From the IMG/VR virus record IMGVR_UViG_3300017766_004544, positions 1 to 64,000 of that record: DNA of 64,000 nt; one strand, written 5' to 3'. Every line of letters starts with the position of its first letter. Within the stretch, counting starts at the first letter, position 1. Shown here one piece after another: positions 5,437 to 50,654 of the stretch. Origin of the DNA: a virus (lineage: Duplodnaviria > Caudoviricetes). Made by a program: the position numbers and the translations under genes. Below the pieces are notes generated by a model. It was not told the DNA's origin. It saw nothing but the letters and a program-made list of their open reading frames with translations, and ran no database searches.

Positions 5437-6099
5437 GTGAGCACCGCAACTCTTGTTGTGGCCTTGGCGGCGCAACCTGCCGAAACCGTCGCGCACGGCA
5501 AGCAGGTCCTGGAAGTCTTTGCCACTACCAATGGCAAGGATCAGGTTCCTGTTTTATTGCGTTGCGCGTCTGGCAGCAAGACAGCCGAGGCCCTAAAGAC
5601 CAAGACCGCAGGCCAGACCCTGATCATCGCTGGTGATCTTCTTCTAGAAGACAGCCAGACGGTTGTGTTCATCCACACCCTCTGCGATGTCTCCCCCGAC
5701 GCCTACGTCAACCAAGTCACAGTCACCGGTCGCCTTGCCAAAGAGGCCCGGGTCGCCGAGTCCAACAAGTCCGCCTCTCGCTCGCTGGCCATCAATCGCA
5801 TGGTCAATGGCGAAGAGGTGACCGACTGGTTCACCCTGCGTGGCTACGGCTACGTCATGGACCGGCTGATCGCCCTGCCCGTCGGCACCCTGGCCATGGT
5901 CGAGGGCACCCTCGATCTACGCACCAACCGCGAGGGCAAGCCCTACTGCGAAGTCAAGGGACGCTCGATCCGTGCCTTTGAGCGCGGGCGCGGGAACAAG
6001 GGCACCAGCAACCCCGCCGCTGGCACGAAAGCCGTGGGATACGACCACGAGGACTTCGTTAACACCGCCGACAACATGCCCTGCGACTGGAACAACTAA
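5437..6099 (+). CDS. ssb: Single-stranded DNA-binding protein, two tandem OB folds
   Basis: NQVTVTGRLAKE, TDWFTLRGYG, VEGTL...EVKG; similar N-terminal OB half. Confidence 0.75.
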   Translation: MSTATLVVALAAQPAETVAHGKQVLEVFATTNGKDQVPVLLRCASGSKTAEALKTKTAGQTLIIAGDLLLEDSQTVVFIHTLCDVSPDAYVNQVTVTGRLAKEARVAESNKSASRSLAINRMVNGEEVTDWFTLRGYGYVMDRLIALPVGTLAMVEGTLDLRTNREGKPYCEVKGRSIRAFERGRGNKGTSNPAAGTKAVGYDHEDFVNTADNMPCDWNN

Positions 6100-6117
6100 C
6101 CACCTTCTGACATAACC

Positions 6118-6819
6118 ATGGGATTCCTTCCGACCGACTACCGCCCGACCTCTGGAACCACCGAAAGCAGCGACACCAAGCGCAACCGTTACTTCGACCC
6201 CGGCAAGCGACTCAAGGACGGCGAGTCCACCACCTTCCGCCTCTGCGGCCTCCACGACACCGGTCACGTGATCGCCGGCTGGTCCTACTTCACGATGGAC
6301 GGCCAGCCCCGCAAGTTCCCCAAGTACCCCGAGAACTTCGCCGAGGAGATCGGCCTGACCTGGGCCGGCAAGACCAATGGCACCGGCGAAAAGGACAAGC
6401 CCCGCTACTTCCTGTCCTTCGTCGGACTCTCCAAAGAGGACGACGACTACCTGATCTACACCTTCCAGCGCAAGGACCTGCGGGTGCAGCTCGAGGAGGT
6501 CCTGGCCCTCGAGGACTACCAGATCCTGCCCTCGGGCGTGGCCAACTTCTACCTGACGCTCAAGCGCAAGGGCATCGAGACGAACACGTCCTACACCTTG
6601 ACCCCCACGCTCAAGGTGCCCACCAAGGCCGAAGAGAAGCGCTGGAGTGAGGTCGCTGACTCCATCTGGCTGCCTGCCGTGTACGTCAACGGCGACCCCT
6701 TCTCTGGGAAGCCCAACGCTGGCCGCCCCGAAGGACTGCCCCCGACCCACCGCGACGACCTAGGCGCCGACCACGAAGTGGCAACCGTTACGGCAGAAGC
6801 CATGCCAGCAGGCTGGTGA
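6118..6819 (+). CDS. Phage gp32-like ssDNA-binding protein
   Basis: YF..K.LKDGESTTFRL and LKRKGIETNTSYTLTP are typical of phage gp32-like SSBs. Confidence 0.6.
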   Translation: MGFLPTDYRPTSGTTESSDTKRNRYFDPGKRLKDGESTTFRLCGLHDTGHVIAGWSYFTMDGQPRKFPKYPENFAEEIGLTWAGKTNGTGEKDKPRYFLSFVGLSKEDDDYLIYTFQRKDLRVQLEEVLALEDYQILPSGVANFYLTLKRKGIETNTSYTLTPTLKVPTKAEEKRWSEVADSIWLPAVYVNGDPFSGKPNAGRPEGLPPTHRDDLGADHEVATVTAEAMPAGW

Positions 6820-6880
6820 TTCGCCTCCCTTAGATGCAGTAGCACTGCATCTTGCTTCTCATCTGCTGCCATTGTCCTCA

Positions 6881-6910
6881 CCCTTCCGCCTCTCCTGGCG
6901 GAAGGGGTTT
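6881..6910 (+). terminator. Rho-independent terminator
   Basis: CCCTTCCGCC-tctcct-GGCGGAAGGG-gttt. Confidence 0.75.
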
Positions 6911-7008
6911 ATGCATGTGCCGCATAATGCAGCAGTGATGACTATGCGTCTTATGCATAGAGTCCAGGCAGTCCGGCTTCGGCGCAATCTGCAGCACACG
7001 CCCGTGTA

Positions 7009-7293
7009 CTATTTGGGCCCTTCGCGACGAGCAGTCAGTGCCGCCAGCAGCTTGTCAGAAGACTCTGGCGACCATGGCTGCCCGGCCAAGTTCTTAGCCG
7101 CTTCTCTCGCCAAGAAGCGCAATGCGGACGGGTAGGTGACCATCACCTGCTGTGCCATTTGTTTGGCGATTTCTCGAAGCTCTGCTTCGTTGGCTCGATC
7201 CAGCGCATTCACAAATTGCGCTAGCCGTAACTGCTCGCCAACAGTTGGCTCCAGCCCGTCATCCATCCCACGCTCCGGGTGTGCATTGCTCAT
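7009..7293 (-). CDS. NblA-like protein (divergent)
   Basis: PTVGEQLRLAQFVNALDRANEAELREIAKQMAQQVM fits the NblA L-T-x-EQ two-helix pattern. Confidence 0.45.
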   Translation of the reverse strand: MSNAHPERGMDDGLEPTVGEQLRLAQFVNALDRANEAELREIAKQMAQQVMVTYPSALRFLAREAAKNLAGQPWSPESSDKLLAALTARREGPK

Positions 7294-8777: not shown

Positions 8778-9566
8778 GTGAGTGTCGCTACACGTTTTGA
8801 GGTAGACGGCACTCGCTTCTACAGGTCCGGCGACGACCCCAACAAGGCCTACGCCTCGGTCACCGCGATCCTCGGCAAGACAGCATCAGAGCACAGCAAG
8901 AAAGCGCTCTACAACTGGGGCCTGAAGAACCCGGGTGGCAAGGAAGCGGCTGCTGCTCGAGGTACCGCCGTGCACTACGCCTGTGAGCGTTACATCCGCG
9001 GCCTGCCCACCGAGATCCCCGACGAATACCGTCCGTTCTGGGATGGTCTGGCCAAGCATCTCGACAAGTACGACTACTTCCTGTGGAGTGAAAAGCCTCT
9101 GCGCCCAGAGTGGAAGTTCTGCTCCGGCGATGATGGCATCCATCGCATCTGGTCCCATGAGCATGGCTATGCCGGCTGCCCGGACCTAGTCGGTGTCCGC
9201 AATGGCGTCACGATCCTGGCTGACTTCAAGACATCCAACCAGCCGTACTGCCGCTTCTACCCCAAGGAGAAGGATCGCAGCAACTTCACCGGCTGGAACA
9301 AGTTCAACAAGTGCTCTGTCCAGTTAGCGGCCTACGCCCTGGCCTGCAAGGAAACCCTGGATCTCAAGATCGACTGCGCTCAGATCCTGGTCTCCACGCC
9401 TGAGATCGATCAATCCTTCTACCTCCATGGCGACGACCTGGTGCACTACCGCATCAAGTGGCTGCAGAAAGTCCGCAAGTACTACGAACTGATCGAGCAG
9501 GAAAAGCTTGAGCGTGAACAGCAGGAATCCATGGCCGGCGACTGCAAGATCCTTCAGTCCGCCTGA
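8778..9566 (+). CDS. PD-(D/E)XK exonuclease (Cas4/lambda-exo-like)
   Basis: SVTAIL, RGTAVH, YAGCPDL, ADFKTS, QLAAYA motifs. Confidence 0.88.
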   Translation: MSVATRFEVDGTRFYRSGDDPNKAYASVTAILGKTASEHSKKALYNWGLKNPGGKEAAAARGTAVHYACERYIRGLPTEIPDEYRPFWDGLAKHLDKYDYFLWSEKPLRPEWKFCSGDDGIHRIWSHEHGYAGCPDLVGVRNGVTILADFKTSNQPYCRFYPKEKDRSNFTGWNKFNKCSVQLAAYALACKETLDLKIDCAQILVSTPEIDQSFYLHGDDLVHYRIKWLQKVRKYYELIEQEKLEREQQESMAGDCKILQSA

Positions 9567-9616
9567 TAGGCCGCCAGGCAGGGAATTCCTAGACTTCGTA
9601 GACATGCAGCATTTGG

Positions 9617-43603: not shown

Positions 43604-44328
43604 TCAGTACACGAACGAGTAGGCCACGGTCACGAAGTCCTTGTTCAGGATCTCGAAACCGGCGAAGAGCGACCAAATCATGATGATAAAGCGACTGAAA
43701 TCGTCGTTATTATTCAACAAGATCTGAGCGTTGTTGCCGCCGATGCCAACGCCCACGGCCTGAGGACCGAAGAACAGCATCGGAGCAGCGGTGGTCACGG
43801 CGCTGGTGATAGAGGCATCAGCGATCGTGACCTGCAGGCTCTTCTCGGGTAGGTTGGTGCTCTCGAACCAACGGACGCCCTCAAAGAGGAAGCCCGAGGG
43901 CATCACGGCCTGGCCTGCCACGAAGCCGGCTTGACCGTAAGCAGGGCCCATGCCACGGAAGAAGCTGGCATTGGGGGCCAGTTCGGGCTGCATGGGGTTG
44001 ACCATGCCATTGCCTGCATAACGAGCGATCTCACGGAACGCATCGTTCTGACGCAGGTGCATCATTGCGGTGGGGTCCGCGATGCAGCGGTAGTACCCAT
44101 CGGCGAAGGTGGGCACGTTGCGCTTACGCATGTCCTTCACGACCTCGAGGAGGTCGGTCTTGACATCGAACTTGGCGGATTCGCCAGCTGCGTAGGTCAG
44201 GAAGGGGGCAGAAGCTGCCTTGGCCTTCTTCAGGGGGTAGAAGTAACCACCCTTGGTGCTGTCAGCTGCGCCATTGGCTTCAGCTTTGAAGAGTTCGTCG
44301 GCAAAAACCCGGTCACGCCAGCGCCTGT
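43604..44328 (-). CDS. Major capsid protein, exon 2
   Basis: (Y)RRWRDRVFADELFK...FEGVRWFESTN..FGPQAVGVG; joins exon 1 in frame (418+725=1143 nt, 380 aa). Confidence 0.88.
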
Positions 44329-45525
44329 CACTGCTGCCCCGAAGGGCCGCGAGGCTCTTTATCCTCGCGCTTGCTCTTTGTCATCGAGCAAGGTTAGACT
44401 ATATCTTCACCATCCTTGAACTTCTGAAGACCCCCTTGAACGCGTTGGCGCGCGAGGCGCTTGACGCGCTGACCGATTCACTCTCCGACAAGGAGATTGG
44501 CGAGCTCTATGGCCTGTCGAGGACGGCGGCCACCCATCATCGCAAAGCCGCTGGTGTGCGGTCGTTTGCTCAGAAGCACGGTCGACGCAGGTACGCCGAC
44601 AGTTACGAGCGAAAACCTGGAGCCCAACGCGCCGTCAGCTATCGCCGCGAGATTCGCGAAGATTTCTTTCGCCAGATTGATACCCCCGAGAAGGCGTACT
44701 GGCTGGGCTTCCTTTCGGCCGATGGCTGGATTGTCACCGAGAAAGGCGCCTTGAGGGGCGTTGGCCTTGCTCTGCATGAGAGAGATCAGGGCATCTTGGA
44801 GCAATACGCCCAAAGCGTTGGGTTCCCCGGCCCTCCCACTCGGGCTCGAGCAGGCTCACCGCTAATGCAGGTGAAGTTCACGAGTCCGGCCATGGCCGCG
44901 GATCTCGTGGCCCATGGGGTCACTCCCAGGAAATCTCGCACAATTACGTGGCCCGAGCTACAGAGTCGCCTACTCCGCCATTACGCCAGAGGCGTATTTG
45001 ACGGCGATGGGTCAGTCGGGCGACGCCCGAATGGCTCTCTGGCAGCGCAGCTCACGACGGCAAGCGAGGCGTTCGCATATGGCTTCAAGTCGTGGGCCGA
45101 CCCCGCCCTACCCCGGGAGACCTCCGTGGGTAAAGACAGGAATACCCACGTCTTGCGCTGGTACGCCGATAACGCCCTTGCTTTCGCCGGGCTCCTCTAC
45201 GAGGGCACGACATCCGAGCGCTTGCGACTGGAGCGCAAGTACAGGGTCTTCTTCAGTTGACAAGGTGCAGGTGCGGGGCACTCGTGGGTCCGTTACCGAG
45301 TTTCCTCTCGGGACCTAGTCGTTGAACCTTCCGGCTTGTTGGCCGGATTGGCTGCTGATTACCCATGCGGCGTCAGGATTTTTAAGCGTTCACGATTGCC
45401 CTTCCGGGCTGCGTTGTAGCTCCTGAACCTATTCCGACCGCTGGCGTGATCGGGAAGGGCTTCCAGCAATTCACCCCGTGTTGCCCTAGGCGTTTCCGCC
45501 TAGGCGACCACAAGCCTTTCGGCCG
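44329..45525 (-). ncRNA. Group I self-splicing intron (IA-like), 1197 nt
   Basis: 5' exon ends in U, intron ends in G; P1 GACU/GGUC, P10 CUUGU/ACAGG; P UUGCUGGAAG, Q AAUCAGCAGCC, R GUUCAACGACUAG, S AAGAUAUAGUC; P3 CGGGGUG/UGCCCCG; P9 hairpins. Confidence 0.93.
44436..45260 (+). CDS. Intron-encoded double-motif LAGLIDADG homing endonuclease, antisense to host gene
   Basis: AYWLGFLSADG and ARGVFDGDG; N-terminal HTH-like segment; start uncertain (TTG 44436 or 44445). Confidence 0.88.
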   Translation: MNALAREALDALTDSLSDKEIGELYGLSRTAATHHRKAAGVRSFAQKHGRRRYADSYERKPGAQRAVSYRREIREDFFRQIDTPEKAYWLGFLSADGWIVTEKGALRGVGLALHERDQGILEQYAQSVGFPGPPTRARAGSPLMQVKFTSPAMAADLVAHGVTPRKSRTITWPELQSRLLRHYARGVFDGDGSVGRRPNGSLAAQLTTASEAFAYGFKSWADPALPRETSVGKDRNTHVLRWYADNALAFAGLLYEGTTSERLRLERKYRVFFS

Positions 45526-45943
45526 AGTCATCCAGCAGAGTCAGCGAACCGATCGACTGGTGGAAAACATTCAGGTTGCCGGTGTCCAGCAGCAGGCGCT
45601 GGGCAGTCAGCAGGGTTTCCCGGGCCACCTTGAAGGTGGAGGGGGCGGAAGTATCGGTCGGATCAGCGGGGCCGGTGTACTCCTTGAGAGTCACCAGCAC
45701 CTTATCCTTCACGATCGAGCGCGAAGATGCAGTGCCGAGGGTCTGATCAGCGGTACGCTCACGGCTGTCCTTGGTGCCAGGGGCACCCCAGAAGCGGTAG
45801 CGGTCAAGCTGAACAGTCTGGCCGGGTTGCTTGGCGAAGTCGTGCACAACCACGGGCTCGACCGCCATCTCCACGATGTACGAGGGATGGGGCCGATAGA
45901 GCTCGGCACCTAGCAGCTTCGGAAAGTCATTGTCAATCCACAT
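45526..45943 (-). CDS. Major capsid protein, exon 1
   Basis: MWIDNDFPKLLGAELYRPHP...IGSLTLLDD; position between scaffold/portal and decoration gene. Confidence 0.88.
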
Positions 45944-46024
45944 GGGATGAAATGTCCGAGCGACAAGTGTGCGAGAAGGCACGCAAGGCGCCTCCTGGGG
46001 CTTACTATAAAACAGTCTCGTAGT

Positions 46025-46786
46025 GTGAAAAAGTTGGACGCCACAGACGTCCGGGGCCTGCTCAGCTTGTTGCTTGCTGATGGCAGTTTGGTGCCATATC
46101 GCAGTCCTGGAGGGGGATATATCCAGCTCACGCTGACAGCCGGCGCAGCGGAGTCCGCGTTTCTCGAGGAGAAGGTCGCCGAATTCCGCCAATTTGTGCC
46201 GACGCAGGCGCAGATTGTTCACTACAAAACCAAGCCGCGCGCCAACGGCCAGAGCACCTCGGTGCTGCGCTTTCGGGTGTCATCGACTCGCCTGCGCCCC
46301 GTCTACAACTTGCTCTACCCAACCGGGGAGCGTGAGATCAGCCAGACCGCACTCGACATGCTGGGCGCTCAAGCCGCTGCCTGGCTCTGGGCAGAAGGGG
46401 CACGGCTGCACCCAGAGGGCTACGTCGATCTTGCCCGGGTCGGCAGGACCTTCGATGAGGCCCTGCGGGTCTGCCAGTGGATTGGAGTCTTGACCGGCGC
46501 GGAGGCAACGCTGGCCGATACCCACATCCAGCCTCGCCTGCGCTTCCAAAGGCGTGAGGCCAGCAAGATCCGCAAGGCCCTGCTGCCCTACGCACCGGCG
46601 AGTCGCATTCACTTATTCAAAGAGGAAGTCTGGGATGTCAGCCTCATTCGTAGCGCTCGCACTGAGCTACTGCTTGGGGAGGGGGACCCTTGGCCTCAAG
46701 GGGGCGAAGAAGCGGCCGTGGCTCGAGATCAAACGCCGGGAGACGGACTTGACCTACCTGAACCACCAACTGCGCATGCTCCATAA
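46025..46786 (+). CDS. Free-standing LAGLIDADG_2-like protein A
   Basis: LLSLLLADGSL and AAWLWAEG; start GTG 46025 assumed. Confidence 0.75.
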   Translation: MKKLDATDVRGLLSLLLADGSLVPYRSPGGGYIQLTLTAGAAESAFLEEKVAEFRQFVPTQAQIVHYKTKPRANGQSTSVLRFRVSSTRLRPVYNLLYPTGEREISQTALDMLGAQAAAWLWAEGARLHPEGYVDLARVGRTFDEALRVCQWIGVLTGAEATLADTHIQPRLRFQRREASKIRKALLPYAPASRIHLFKEEVWDVSLIRSARTELLLGEGDPWPQGGEEAAVARDQTPGDGLDLPEPPTAHAP

Positions 46787-47195
46787 GGCGCATGACGGCA
46801 AGCTCGAAGCGGTCTCGGACATCGTCCAGGCCGAGGGCTTCTATGACGACCGGCGGATTCGCGTCCACAGCCCTGATCTGTACCGCGTCTACGACCTGCT
46901 CTTCTTCCGGGATGAACGCCGCCTGACGCCTGAGATTCTCCAGATCGCTGGCATGCAGGGTCTGGCTGCTCTGTGGTGCGATACCGGCACGGCCTCGCGC
47001 CGCAAGGTCGTTCTGCGGTCCTGGGCCAGCCTCGAGGAAACGCAGTATCTACGTGACTGGGTTGTGGGCTTGGGCTATCTGCCGTCGCTTGTGCAAAAGG
47101 GGCGCCTCGAGTTTCAGGGCATCTACGCCGATGACCTCATTCACGATCTCAGGCAGCTCATCCCCCGCTGCAAGCTGCCAACTCTGAGGCGTTAG
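46635..47195 (+). CDS. Free-standing LAGLIDADG_2-like protein B, degenerate
   Basis: ALSYCLGRGTL (D replaced by R) and LAALWCDTG; ATG 46635. Confidence 0.7.
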   Translation: MSASFVALALSYCLGRGTLGLKGAKKRPWLEIKRRETDLTYLNHQLRMLHKAHDGKLEAVSDIVQAEGFYDDRRIRVHSPDLYRVYDLLFFRDERRLTPEILQIAGMQGLAALWCDTGTASRRKVVLRSWASLEETQYLRDWVVGLGYLPSLVQKGRLEFQGIYADDLIHDLRQLIPRCKLPTLRR

Positions 47196-47202
47196 CTTGG
47201 CT

Positions 47203-47220
47203 TTGCTATTTCGATAGCAA
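47203..47220 (+). other. UUCG-capped hairpin
   Basis: TTGCTAT-TTCG-ATAGCAA just after the LAGLIDADG pair. Confidence 0.5.
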
Positions 47221-47411
47221 CCCCGAAGAAGAACGGCGTCAGGGGTATCTTCTCCAGGAGCTCGGATTTTTGCCGTTTCCCTGAGCTGGTGAGTGATCCG
47301 CCGTGCGTCTGATCAGCGTGCGGCGGCGCCTGGCACTTGCATTCCCAATAACTGCCAGATATTCGCTATTCGCGTATTGAGTAGCATTGCAGCATCTCTG
47401 GTGGGCATTAT

Positions 47412-47576
47412 ATGGCTCAGCAAGGAGTCCCCGACGATCAGCAAACCGGTTGCGACCTACCCGGCGCAGGAGCTGAGCAGGCCGCCGATCCACTCGATTC
47501 CGGCATGCGGCGCAAGTTCCTGAACTTCTGCCAAGAGAATCCCTGGGCCGACGAGTGCCGCATCTATGAACTCTGA
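47412..47576 (+). CDS. CP12-like microprotein (C-terminal motif only), 54 aa
   Basis: C-terminus FLNFCQENPWADECRIYEL matches CP12 C-x-x-NP-x-x-x-EC-R-I-Y; TGATG overlap; not in ORF track. Confidence 0.7.
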   Translation: MAQQGVPDDQQTGCDLPGAGAEQAADPLDSGMRRKFLNFCQENPWADECRIYEL

Positions 47577-48376
47577 TGGCACTAACCCAGACCCGAGCTT
47601 ACGAAGACATCCGCACCAGCTACGGCGGCAGTGATACAACACTGCCCTCTTTCTTGAGGCCGTACTACGTCCAATACAACTCCATCAGCAAGTCGCGCGA
47701 CCTCGGCCAGACGGACATCCTGGTTGCGGACCTCGCTGGCGAAATTGGATCAGAAGCCGGGAGCAACACTCTGTTCTTCAAGGTGTCCCTGCCGCGACGC
47801 GTCGAGCTCAGTGTCCGCAAGCGCGCCAGCGGCGCCAGCACCGACCGGTTCCTCAGTGTTGGCATTCTCGATGGCGAGCGCAAGCCAATTCAGTTGGACG
47901 CCAGCGGCTACGCAACCGAGTGCGACGTCTACGGTACAGAAGCGTACGAGAACCTACTGGGCGTACCAGCGGGGACTTATTACATCACAGTTGCCAGCAG
48001 TCAGTGGCAGCGCATTCCTTTTGCGATCACGGTCTCCGTCGGGCGGTACGCACTCTTAAGTGGTGCCGCCCAGGGAGCCTTTGTCCCCGGCGGTCGTATT
48101 CCACTGGTCAAGGTCATCGCAACCGCCCAGGGCAGTGCTCCACTGGAGGGGACCCTTCTGCGGCCCAGCGTGATCAAGATGCCGCAAGGCCCTGCAGGGG
48201 GTACCGCAACGCCAACCCTGACTCTTTCGATTATGCGCGGGGTTGCCACCGGCAGCATGGTGCCTACAGGCCGTCTGATGATGAACTGGAAGCTCAGCGG
48301 AGTTGCCAGCGGGGGCGATCAATCTCAAGGAACACTCAGCAGCGAAGCGCCGTATGGCGGCGGCTACGGTTACTAA
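47576..48376 (+). CDS. Putative structural protein (PPC-like beta domain)
   Basis: FFKVSL..AGTYYITVAS; G/A/T-rich C-terminus. Confidence 0.65.
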   Translation: MALTQTRAYEDIRTSYGGSDTTLPSFLRPYYVQYNSISKSRDLGQTDILVADLAGEIGSEAGSNTLFFKVSLPRRVELSVRKRASGASTDRFLSVGILDGERKPIQLDASGYATECDVYGTEAYENLLGVPAGTYYITVASSQWQRIPFAITVSVGRYALLSGAAQGAFVPGGRIPLVKVIATAQGSAPLEGTLLRPSVIKMPQGPAGGTATPTLTLSIMRGVATGSMVPTGRLMMNWKLSGVASGGDQSQGTLSSEAPYGGGYGY

Positions 48377-49487: not shown

Positions 49488-50654
49488 TCAGTAATCCCAG
49501 ATTGCAGAAGGCTTGACTCCGGCCCGTGCAAAGAACTTGCCATTATTGCGAGTATCGATGTGGATAAATCCACGCGGGCGACCATCGCCGTAACCACCGC
49601 TCCATCGCTGTACAAGCCATTCGTGGAACTTCTGCAGTGATTCGCCAATGGGATAGATGTCTAAGGCCATCCCTTTGACGTGATAGCTGCCCGGCACTCC
49701 ACCCACCTGACTATTGATTGGTTCAGGGCGGTACCCGCTGGTGATGCCCAGTGGGCCGGCCCACGCCGTGCGGATCGCATCGAACTGCTTGCAGACCTCG
49801 ATGATCGCTTTCTCCTCCGCACTGCCGGCCTTCGGGGCCCGGCGAGCGTCGTACTGCAGAATCTCACCGACCGTGACGTACTTGCCAACCGGGCAGGCGA
49901 AATCACTCCAGTTGATCGCCCCCGAAGCCGCAGGGGCGGGCTTGGCCTGCTCCTCGAGCCAGTGCGGCGTGAACAGCACCCAGCGTTCGCCGGATCCATG
50001 CAGCGTCACCCATGCATGGCTGTCGCTTGGAATCTCATCCAGCTTGCTGACTGCCAGCAGTTCGCCTTTGGCGACAGTCTTCTTGCCAGCTTCTGACAAG
50101 TAGTGGCTGTCGATCGGGGCCTTCTTGAGCAGGGTGTCCTGCTGGGCGATGAACTTCATGGTGCCGTCATCCTCTCGTTGCCAGATCTCACCTTCGCGGT
50201 GGCGGCGATTAACCAGTCCAGGCAGTGTTCTACCCCCTGCCTTGACATAAAGGCTAAGAGCCTGAGGCATCTGCTGGTAACGCTCGGCCTTTGTCGCGCC
50301 TTCCTTCAGTACCCGCGTGATGGATTCAAATCCTGCACTTCCGTAGAACTTGGCGCCCAGGTTCCAGGCAAAGCTCAGCAAGACAGACTGCCGCTGCGGG
50401 CCCAGTCGATCCCAGCCAGGGATGCACTCCATCGCTGGCACGAACTGTGTCTTCAGCAGTTCCTGAAGATGTGCCTTGCAGATTCGGTAGTCGCACTGGT
50501 CACCCATGCGCACGGGTTCCCCGTTCGGATAACGGGTGAGTCCGGCGCAGATCGTTGGAATGCCGACGGGATCGAGATAGGCCTCGAGTTCGATCCCCTC
50601 AAATTCCTCGATCAGGCGAGTCGCTAAGCCCAGTGTCTGCGGGTGAATCGCCAT
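49488..50654 (-). CDS. Endolysin: GH24 lysozyme plus M15 peptidase
   Basis: EFEG..AYLDPVGIPTI..GLVNRR..E; ITSGYRP..SYHVKGMALD..FIHID. Confidence 0.92.
   Translation of the reverse strand: MAIHPQTLGLATRLIEEFEGIELEAYLDPVGIPTICAGLTRYPNGEPVRMGDQCDYRICKAHLQELLKTQFVPAMECIPGWDRLGPQRQSVLLSFAWNLGAKFYGSAGFESITRVLKEGATKAERYQQMPQALSLYVKAGGRTLPGLVNRRHREGEIWQREDDGTMKFIAQQDTLLKKAPIDSHYLSEAGKKTVAKGELLAVSKLDEIPSDSHAWVTLHGSGERWVLFTPHWLEEQAKPAPAASGAINWSDFACPVGKYVTVGEILQYDARRAPKAGSAEEKAIIEVCKQFDAIRTAWAGPLGITSGYRPEPINSQVGGVPGSYHVKGMALDIYPIGESLQKFHEWLVQRWSGGYGDGRPRGFIHIDTRNNGKFFARAGVKPSAIWDY

Follow-up and report, generated by a model that had tools for sequence, protein, structure and literature searches.

The stretch of DNA analysed here (the window, 64,000 nucleotides) comprises positions 1 to 64,000 of an IMG/VR virus record (IMGVR_UViG_3300017766_004544) that is complete at 82,229 bp and has direct terminal repeats. 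The source virus is an uncultured freshwater cyanophage related to Synechococcus phage S-EIV1 (KJ410740, L001 among the relatives cited below by L-numbers), which is its sole cultured relative in the phage collection. Between positions 43604 and 45943, on the minus strand, lies the gene of a major capsid protein (MCP), and codon 140 of this gene is very probably interrupted by a mobile group I intron of subgroup IA which carries a LAGLIDADG homing endonuclease gene antisense to the capsid gene (Table 1).

The limits of the intron are given by the exact gap that appears against intron-less alleles, together with a partial match to the Rfam group I model (RF00028) and covariation. Removal of 45525..44329 joins the exons into a 380-amino-acid (aa) protein that reads LLDDYRRWRDRVF, contains ...LTLLDDYRRWRDRVF... 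across the joint and has the junction context ...SLTLLDDYRRWRDRVF... An earlier note on this DNA, made from the letters alone, had placed the intron and the 380-aa product at these coordinates, which prove exact and agree with the uninterrupted homologues. In S-EIV1 the gene is an uninterrupted open reading frame (ORF) of 383 aa (L001 6001..7152) with the predicted junction string LLDDYRRWRDRVF, and tblastn with S-EIV1 gives protein identities of 81% for exon 1 and 61% for exon 2, the two matches being separated by exactly one codon; exon 1 is 100% identical to that of the nearest relative, L003. Across 80 related IMG/VR loci, the exon matches lie 3 nt apart in 74, with the Tyr codon alone between them, while an insert of 1195 nt interrupts L010 at the very nucleotide of the window intron and four loci have a shorter insert 19 nt upstream of it. 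The insertion point is the same in seven intron-bearing contigs, and the intron-less target site of the L003 type consists of CTGCTGGATGACT before that point and ATCGCCGTTGG after it. The intron ends in G and its precise removal restores a reading frame collinear with the uninterrupted homologues. Without removal the exon 1 frame meets a stop 8 codons into the intron, so that the 380-aa coat protein would be made from spliced mRNA alone.

Table 1. Features of the interrupted capsid gene, its intron and the antisense endonuclease gene (positions in the window; IGS, internal guide sequence).
Feature	Position	Strand	Details	Basis
MCP exon 1	45526..45943	-	codons 1-139 and first base of Tyr140; ATG at 45943; last base U 45526	
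Group I intron, IA-type	44329..45525	-	1197 nt; omega-G at 44329	
MCP exon 2	43604..44328	-	last two bases of Tyr140 and codons 141-380; stop TGA 43606-43604	
5' ribozyme domain	45268..45530	-	P1 to P7.1/P3'	Rfam 38.9 bits, helix table, RNAalifold
P1	exon 45529-45526 (GACU) with IGS 45509-45506 (GGUC)	-	U.G at splice site	
P10 strand	45514-45510	-	CUUGU, pairing with exon 2 ACAGG	
P2	45504-45485	-	8 bp, GAAA loop	
P3	45478-45472 with 45280-45274	-		helix table
P4/P5	within 45268..45530	-	large P5 extension	
P6/P6a	45347-45330	-		helix table
P7	5' strand 45320-45316 with P7' 44401-44397	-	GACUA/UAGUC, invariant	
P7.1	45315-45287	-	GGUCC/GGACC with inner CGAG/CUCG; between P7 and P3'	
3' ribozyme domain	44329..44452	-	P8 3' strand to terminal AGCAGUG	
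P8 3' strand	about 44440-44406	-	followed by J8/7; P8 cofold -33 kcal/mol	
3' hairpins	P9 44392-44370; P9.1 44369-44348; P9.2 44347-44336	-		helix table
LAGLIDADG homing endonuclease gene	44424..45260	+	278 codons; CTG 44424, TGA 45258-45260; antisense to capsid gene	
Promoter-like site, hypothetical	44378..44407	+	TTGTCA, 18 nt, TATCTT	sigma-70-like consensus scan

The interrupted gene encodes an HK97-fold MCP. Exon 2 matches phrog_1357 ('major head protein') at 2e-16, and distant homologues of the protein match the Pfam families Phage_capsid_2/3 and P22_CoatProtein. An AlphaFold (AF2) model of the 99%-identical intron-less L003 protein (predicted local distance difference test score, pLDDT, 78.6; predicted template modelling score, pTM, 0.76) finds its best Foldseek matches in the PDB among solved phage capsids, those of Pan3, P-SCSP1u, GP4 and N4 (E ~5e-13 (4e-13), probability 1.00). 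Fold, family sequence signal and head-module context all point to the same assignment. Codon 140 (Tyr) lies within a long helix, residues 133-158, which is the spine helix of the HK97 fold and among the most conserved stretches of the family, with L136, D139 and D145 nearly invariant.

The insert itself has the sequence and pairing of a group I ribozyme. RF00028 reaches 38.9 bits (E = 1.5e-7) over 45530..45268, an alignment that extends from P1 to P3'; the gathering cut-off is 50 bits. A gathering-threshold scan of the whole window returned nothing, and the 5' half is visible in E-value mode only. The earlier note had named an Infernal group I model as a check, and this is borne out for the 5' half but not for the total score, because the 0.84-kb ORF in P8 puts the P8-P9 part 0.9 kb away. 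The L010 intron scores 49.3 bits across the whole element, and ORF-less sister introns of 252-254 nt at codon 132/133 (L046, L055, L059 and L060) score 58-69 bits. In the rest of the genome the Rfam scan found no second group I intron. Since MAFFT misaligned the 5' end of the window intron against the ORF-less sisters, an anchored comparison was used instead for six introns (window, L010 and the four sisters). Core strings are common to all six, and compensatory substitutions occur in P1, P2, P3, P6, P7.1, P9 and P9.1. P3, for example, is CGGGG/CCCCG or CAGGG/CCCUG, P7.1 covaries as GGAGC/GCUCC, GAGAU/AUCUC and GAAGC/GCUUC, and P9.1, which covaries across 11 sequences, appears as CGCGAGG/CCUCGCG, CCAAAGG/CCUUUGG or CUAAAGG/CCUUUAG. 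The P10 guide changes together with the start of exon 2, whose opening bases ACAGG it pairs with (CUUGU or CCUGU with ACAGG, CUGGU with ACCGG). The sister introns (L046:1300-1552 and those of L055, L059 and L060), 19 nt upstream of the window's site, have the core of the window intron together with covarying P1 and P10 of their own (P1 being GGGU/GCCC or GGAU/GUCC), which suggests a move of the ribozyme to an adjacent site.

A second comparison used introns at the same site, located through endonuclease homology and the core DNA pattern (n = 7: window, L010, L198, L199, L184, L157 and the endonuclease-less 373-nt intron of L120). RNAalifold folds their 5' domains into P1-P7.1 with 69 pairs, 26 of which are changed on both sides. 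Paired cells amount to 97.9%, compared to 87.8% in shuffles, with 0/500 shuffles as high on every measure; a control with partners slid by 1-3 columns gives 27-44%. A chance origin of the ribozyme signal is excluded by the E value of 1.5e-7 on the region and by the failure of any of the 500 shuffles to reach the covariation. The helices listed in the earlier note (P1, P10, P2, P3, P7, an extra helix between P7 and P3' and three P9 hairpins) are all present, several of them covarying; P1 has the U.G wobble at the 5' splice site, and the core helices P3-P9 include the P3/P7 pseudoknot. The note's IA-like typing likewise stands, by the covarying P7.1/P7.2 element between P7 and P3'. Judged by this helix rather than by a classifier, the intron belongs to subgroup IA, following the Michel-Westhof scheme. 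The minus-strand capsid pre-mRNA would fold into the ribozyme and self-splice with guanosine at U45526 and G44329, and it is a sound deduction of the earlier note that capsid synthesis would depend on splicing and that an endonuclease transcript would be antisense to the pre-mRNA. In this way a gene expressed late, for a structural product that each virion needs in hundreds of copies, would depend on the efficiency of a ribozyme.

The endonuclease ORF fills loop L8, both its ends lying within the two strands of the long P8 stem, which is the opposite-strand position in P8 described in the earlier note. Its maximal frame extends back into exon 2; the start was placed at CTG 44424 by alignment with more distant homologues, with TTG 44436 as the alternative. 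Compared with L010, the ORF has a ratio of non-synonymous to synonymous substitution (dN/dS) of 0.115, with 100/150 differences at third codon positions, and the other two frames of the region give ratios of 1.7-2.0; on this pattern of substitutions the ORF is under purifying selection. On the capsid strand no open frame mirrors the endonuclease gene, each of the sense frames across it having 7-8 stops. The protein matches Pfam LAGLIDADG_3 at 32.4 bits (cut-off 22.5) and phrog_4645 at 5e-41. It has two motifs, WLGFLSADG and RGVFDGDG, whose aspartates D100 and D195 are invariant in 11 homologues. As phmmer against PDB sequences gave no match, a fold search was needed. The AlphaFold model (AF2, pLDDT 85.4) consists of two alpha-beta-beta-alpha-beta-beta-alpha repeats in a tandem fold, preceded by an N-terminal three-helix bundle (helix-turn-helix), and in Foldseek it matches I-Tsp061I, bI3 maturase, I-AniI, I-OnuI and I-SceI, with probability 1.00 for I-Tsp061I, I-AniI, I-OnuI and I-SceI.

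Evidence for mobility comes from the distribution of the intron and from the exon sequence next to it. L003 lacks the intron. Over the 600 nt upstream of the insertion point, and as far as that point itself, it is 99% identical to the window; 12 synonymous changes then separate the two in the 38 nt immediately downstream, after which identity returns to 98%. Over this tract the intron-bearing L184 and L010 differ from the window by 5 and 6, compared to the 12 of L003, which suggests homing with short 3' co-conversion; the support is moderate, because some intron-less alleles are equally close to the window in the tract. In mixed infections the endonuclease would cut intron-less capsid alleles at the conserved LLDD/YRRW site, and repair after the cut would copy in the intron and, with it, a short tract of the 3' exon. 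In metagenomes, presence/absence and co-conversion tracts of this kind can serve as tracers of co-infection and of gene flow among Synechococcus phages of fresh and marine waters.

Several observations weigh against parts of this reading, and each is taken here with the alternative that it favours. The first concern the expression of the endonuclease. The neighbouring structural genes are all on the minus strand, so the endonuclease ORF needs a plus-strand promoter of its own. The candidate is a promoter-like site 17 nt upstream of the endonuclease start, complementary to the P9 loop GAUGACAAA and to J8/7-P7'. Six endonuclease-bearing introns, with proteins only 43-86% identical, have this string unchanged, and P9 loops are variable in the ORF-less sister introns. 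However, such matches are not enriched (the consensus scan found 2 sites where 0.9 were expected), and the endonuclease-less L120 intron keeps the same -35-like P9 loop, which weakens the argument that the loop is retained solely as a -35 element. For these two reasons a promoter embedded in the complement of the P9 to J8/7 region is put forward as a hypothesis. Transcription from it would make endonuclease expression independent of late capsid transcription and would send no ribosomes through the ribozyme. The same two points favour the alternative that the antisense orientation is an accident of insertion, the endonuclease being expressed by read-through or from a chance promoter and the antisense RNA having no effect on capsid expression; in addition, RNA ends cannot be mapped from the contigs available. 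Set against it, the endonuclease is antisense to the capsid gene in 8/8 distinct capsid-intron contigs, at three insertion sites and with identities from 85% down to 26%, and an unrelated endonuclease in the capsid gene of phage LittleE is antisense too. We consider an accidental orientation unlikely, though it deserves to be taken seriously. The backwards endonuclease offers a natural system for studying the timing of intron-encoded enzymes and the effect of antisense RNA on splicing.

A second set of observations concerns the function of the protein. The endonuclease has no conserved canonical start codon: the aligned codon is ATG in L157, GTG in L199, TTG in L198 and L184, and CTG in the window and L010, and both TTG 44436 and TTG 44445 of the window are TTA in L010. 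Moreover, synonymous divergence between the window and L010 is 0.77 in the endonuclease and 0.72-0.82 in the exons, so that this pair looks vertically related, with no sign of recent transfer in the substitutions. These features, together with the presence of bI3 maturase and the bifunctional I-AniI among the Foldseek matches, could indicate that the LAGLIDADG protein acts mainly as a maturase or has lost its nuclease activity. This is improbable, since both aspartates at catalytic positions are invariant, the N-terminal helix-turn-helix suits DNA binding, and the presence/absence polymorphism and co-conversion-like tract speak for homing. The ORF-less L120 and sister introns keep the same core, which means that the ribozyme has no obvious need of the protein. 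A homing endonuclease therefore remains the preferred reading.

The third set concerns splicing, for which contigs from other samples were compared; those from RNA libraries are assemblies, from which strand, ends and levels cannot be read. In a DNA run of another study, a 21.9-kb contig covers 44148..46140 including the intron, with 36 differences (~98% identity). The RNA-library contig X15 (439 nt) aligns on 44150-44328 and 45526-45785, joining 44328/45526 and skipping exactly 1197 nt, and 3/4 of its listed variants are common to the intron-bearing DNA contig. However, the joined contig is only ~97% identical to the window, and given how common intron-less DNA alleles are, it may derive from an intron-less phage or from DNA carry-over. 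With no allele-matched DNA run, X15 is compatible with splicing without proving it. The joints in X18 and X16 have 8 and 28 other letters at the junction and hence stem from diverged alleles. The intron interior is almost uncovered in the X15 and X18 runs; a 204-nt contig in X16 lies inside the endonuclease gene at 99.5% identity. That the intron is dead, and the capsid gene a pseudogene of a defective phage or a product of misassembly, is scarcely credible: although no RNA matched to the window allele shows splicing and the window intron scores below the RF00028 gathering cut-off, the genome is complete with terminal repeats, the same architecture recurs in at least five other independent contigs as well as in the 21.9-kb contig, compensatory changes maintain the ribozyme pairs, and the ribozyme parts of the window and L010 are ~96% identical where their exons are ~78% identical.

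The arrangement has a published precedent, and in this respect the novelty implied by the earlier note was overstated. The intron in the major capsid gene of LittleE carries a bottom-strand LAGLIDADG gene (gene 14 within gene 13), and its splicing was demonstrated by reverse transcription PCR (Pope et al. 2013, PMC3706429); the same paper also cites an intron in a capsid gene of the lactococcal phage Tuc2009. In the LittleE GenBank record (JF937101) gene 14, on the minus strand, lies between the joined parts of gene 13, and Rfam gives a partial group I match at 8858-9061, just before the endonuclease (9064-9597, minus). Both phages thus have a group I intron in the capsid gene, the last base being U in exon 1 and G in the intron, and an opposite-strand LAGLIDADG frame just after the 5' ribozyme half. 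However, the endonuclease of LittleE has 177 aa and a single motif and shows no significant similarity to that of the window (blastp E 0.088), the introns share just a 14-nt core match, and phage, capsid family and insertion site differ. No homology to the LittleE endonuclease or intron was detected by these comparisons, and the window intron is therefore a further independent instance of a known arrangement, sound but not a new kind. A literature search found no paper on introns in S-EIV1-like capsid genes. Among cyanophages, an intron is known in psbA of S-PM2, and another lies in Pf-WMP3's DNA polymerase gene (PMC3428280). The IA2 phage introns (T4 td/nrdB/sunY, SPO1 DNA polymerase, Twort orf142 and Pf-WMP3 DNA polymerase; PMC3428280, PMC2988022) share with the window intron an IA core with the extra P7-P3' pairing, P2 and P9.1, an in-frame stop shortly downstream of the 5' splice site, an endonuclease ORF placed in a loop of a peripheral helix, and a site in highly conserved coding sequence. 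They differ in having sense-strand GIY-YIG or HNH endonucleases and mostly DNA-metabolism host genes, whereas the window intron lies in a late structural gene and carries an antisense LAGLIDADG gene.

What is new here is that the capsid genes of the S-EIV1-like lineage form a hot spot for introns, of which a single gene can hold up to five. Inserts occur at about ten positions, near codons 8-19, 36-38, 48/49, 88, about 110, 132/133, 139/140, about 223-235, 283/284 and 292. Five group I introns passing the Rfam cut-off (60-70 bits) lie in a single capsid gene of L161 (7759-10279, minus), and four above the cut-off in one of L087 (3000-5277). L005 (1846-4720) has four group I matches, all of them in or shortly ahead of the first 48 codons; two exceed the cut-off, one falls narrowly short of it and one is partial. 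The capsid gene of L198 (1421-4334; IMGVR_UViG_3300006802_000116) has three introns, near codon 48, at 139/140 and near codon 223, the one at 139/140 bearing an endonuclease 76% identical to that of the window. In a search of representative proteins, many capsid fragments begin or end at insert positions. Twort orf142, with three group I introns in one gene according to the papers that cite it (PMC6669764, PMC3706429), likewise has several per gene, a state seen in the relatives L087, L161 and L005 and not in the window, which has one; the five of L161 and the four of L087 exceed the three of Twort. A broader proposal would be that these capsid genes are a hot spot for a radiating IA intron family (at least 10 sites, up to five ribozymes per 1.14-kb gene) whose LAGLIDADG genes are always antisense, perhaps with a promoter in the P9-J8/7 complement. 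Taken as a whole this is tentative, with the odds somewhat against it. If it were true, an antisense gene with an embedded promoter would offer a general means of expressing a homing enzyme early from within a gene that is itself late and heavily translated. Follow-up is warranted for the intron load across the lineage and for the constancy of the antisense orientation.

Gene callers split or miss this capsid gene, and capsid-based surveys will consequently undercount a widespread cyanophage lineage. Even the intron-less S-EIV1 record shows two unrelated hypothetical proteins: it misses the 383-aa MCP ORF (L001 6001-7152, plus strand) and instead has, over 5926-7152, a hypothetical protein on the minus strand (AHV82227) and a short one on the plus strand (AHV82228).

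Some further features surround the capsid gene. Inside the head-gene module, at 49488-50654 (minus), lies a 388-aa endolysin that combines a phage lysozyme domain at its N-terminus with a peptidase M15 domain at its C-terminus. A terminator-like hairpin at 46052-46036 (minus) is followed directly by a promoter-like site at 46031-46004, ~60 nt upstream of the capsid start codon; both are consensus matches only, and the second may be the capsid gene's own late promoter. Three plus-strand ORFs lie divergently upstream of the capsid gene (45947-46786, 46554-47195 and 47576-48376); their substitution ratios (omega 0.1-0.35 against L003-L011) indicate purifying selection, and relatives without the intron keep them too. 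In the first two there are LAGLIDADG_2 matches below the Pfam threshold (5e-5 and 0.015) and an LLLADGSL motif, and hhalign of these upstream ORFs (A and B) against the profile of the intron endonuclease family was not significant. A weak partial match to the cyanobacterial CyVA-1 RNA family at 47220-47246 (plus; 25 bits against a cut-off of 41.4, E 0.025) forms a 5-bp stem with a conserved 17-nt loop.

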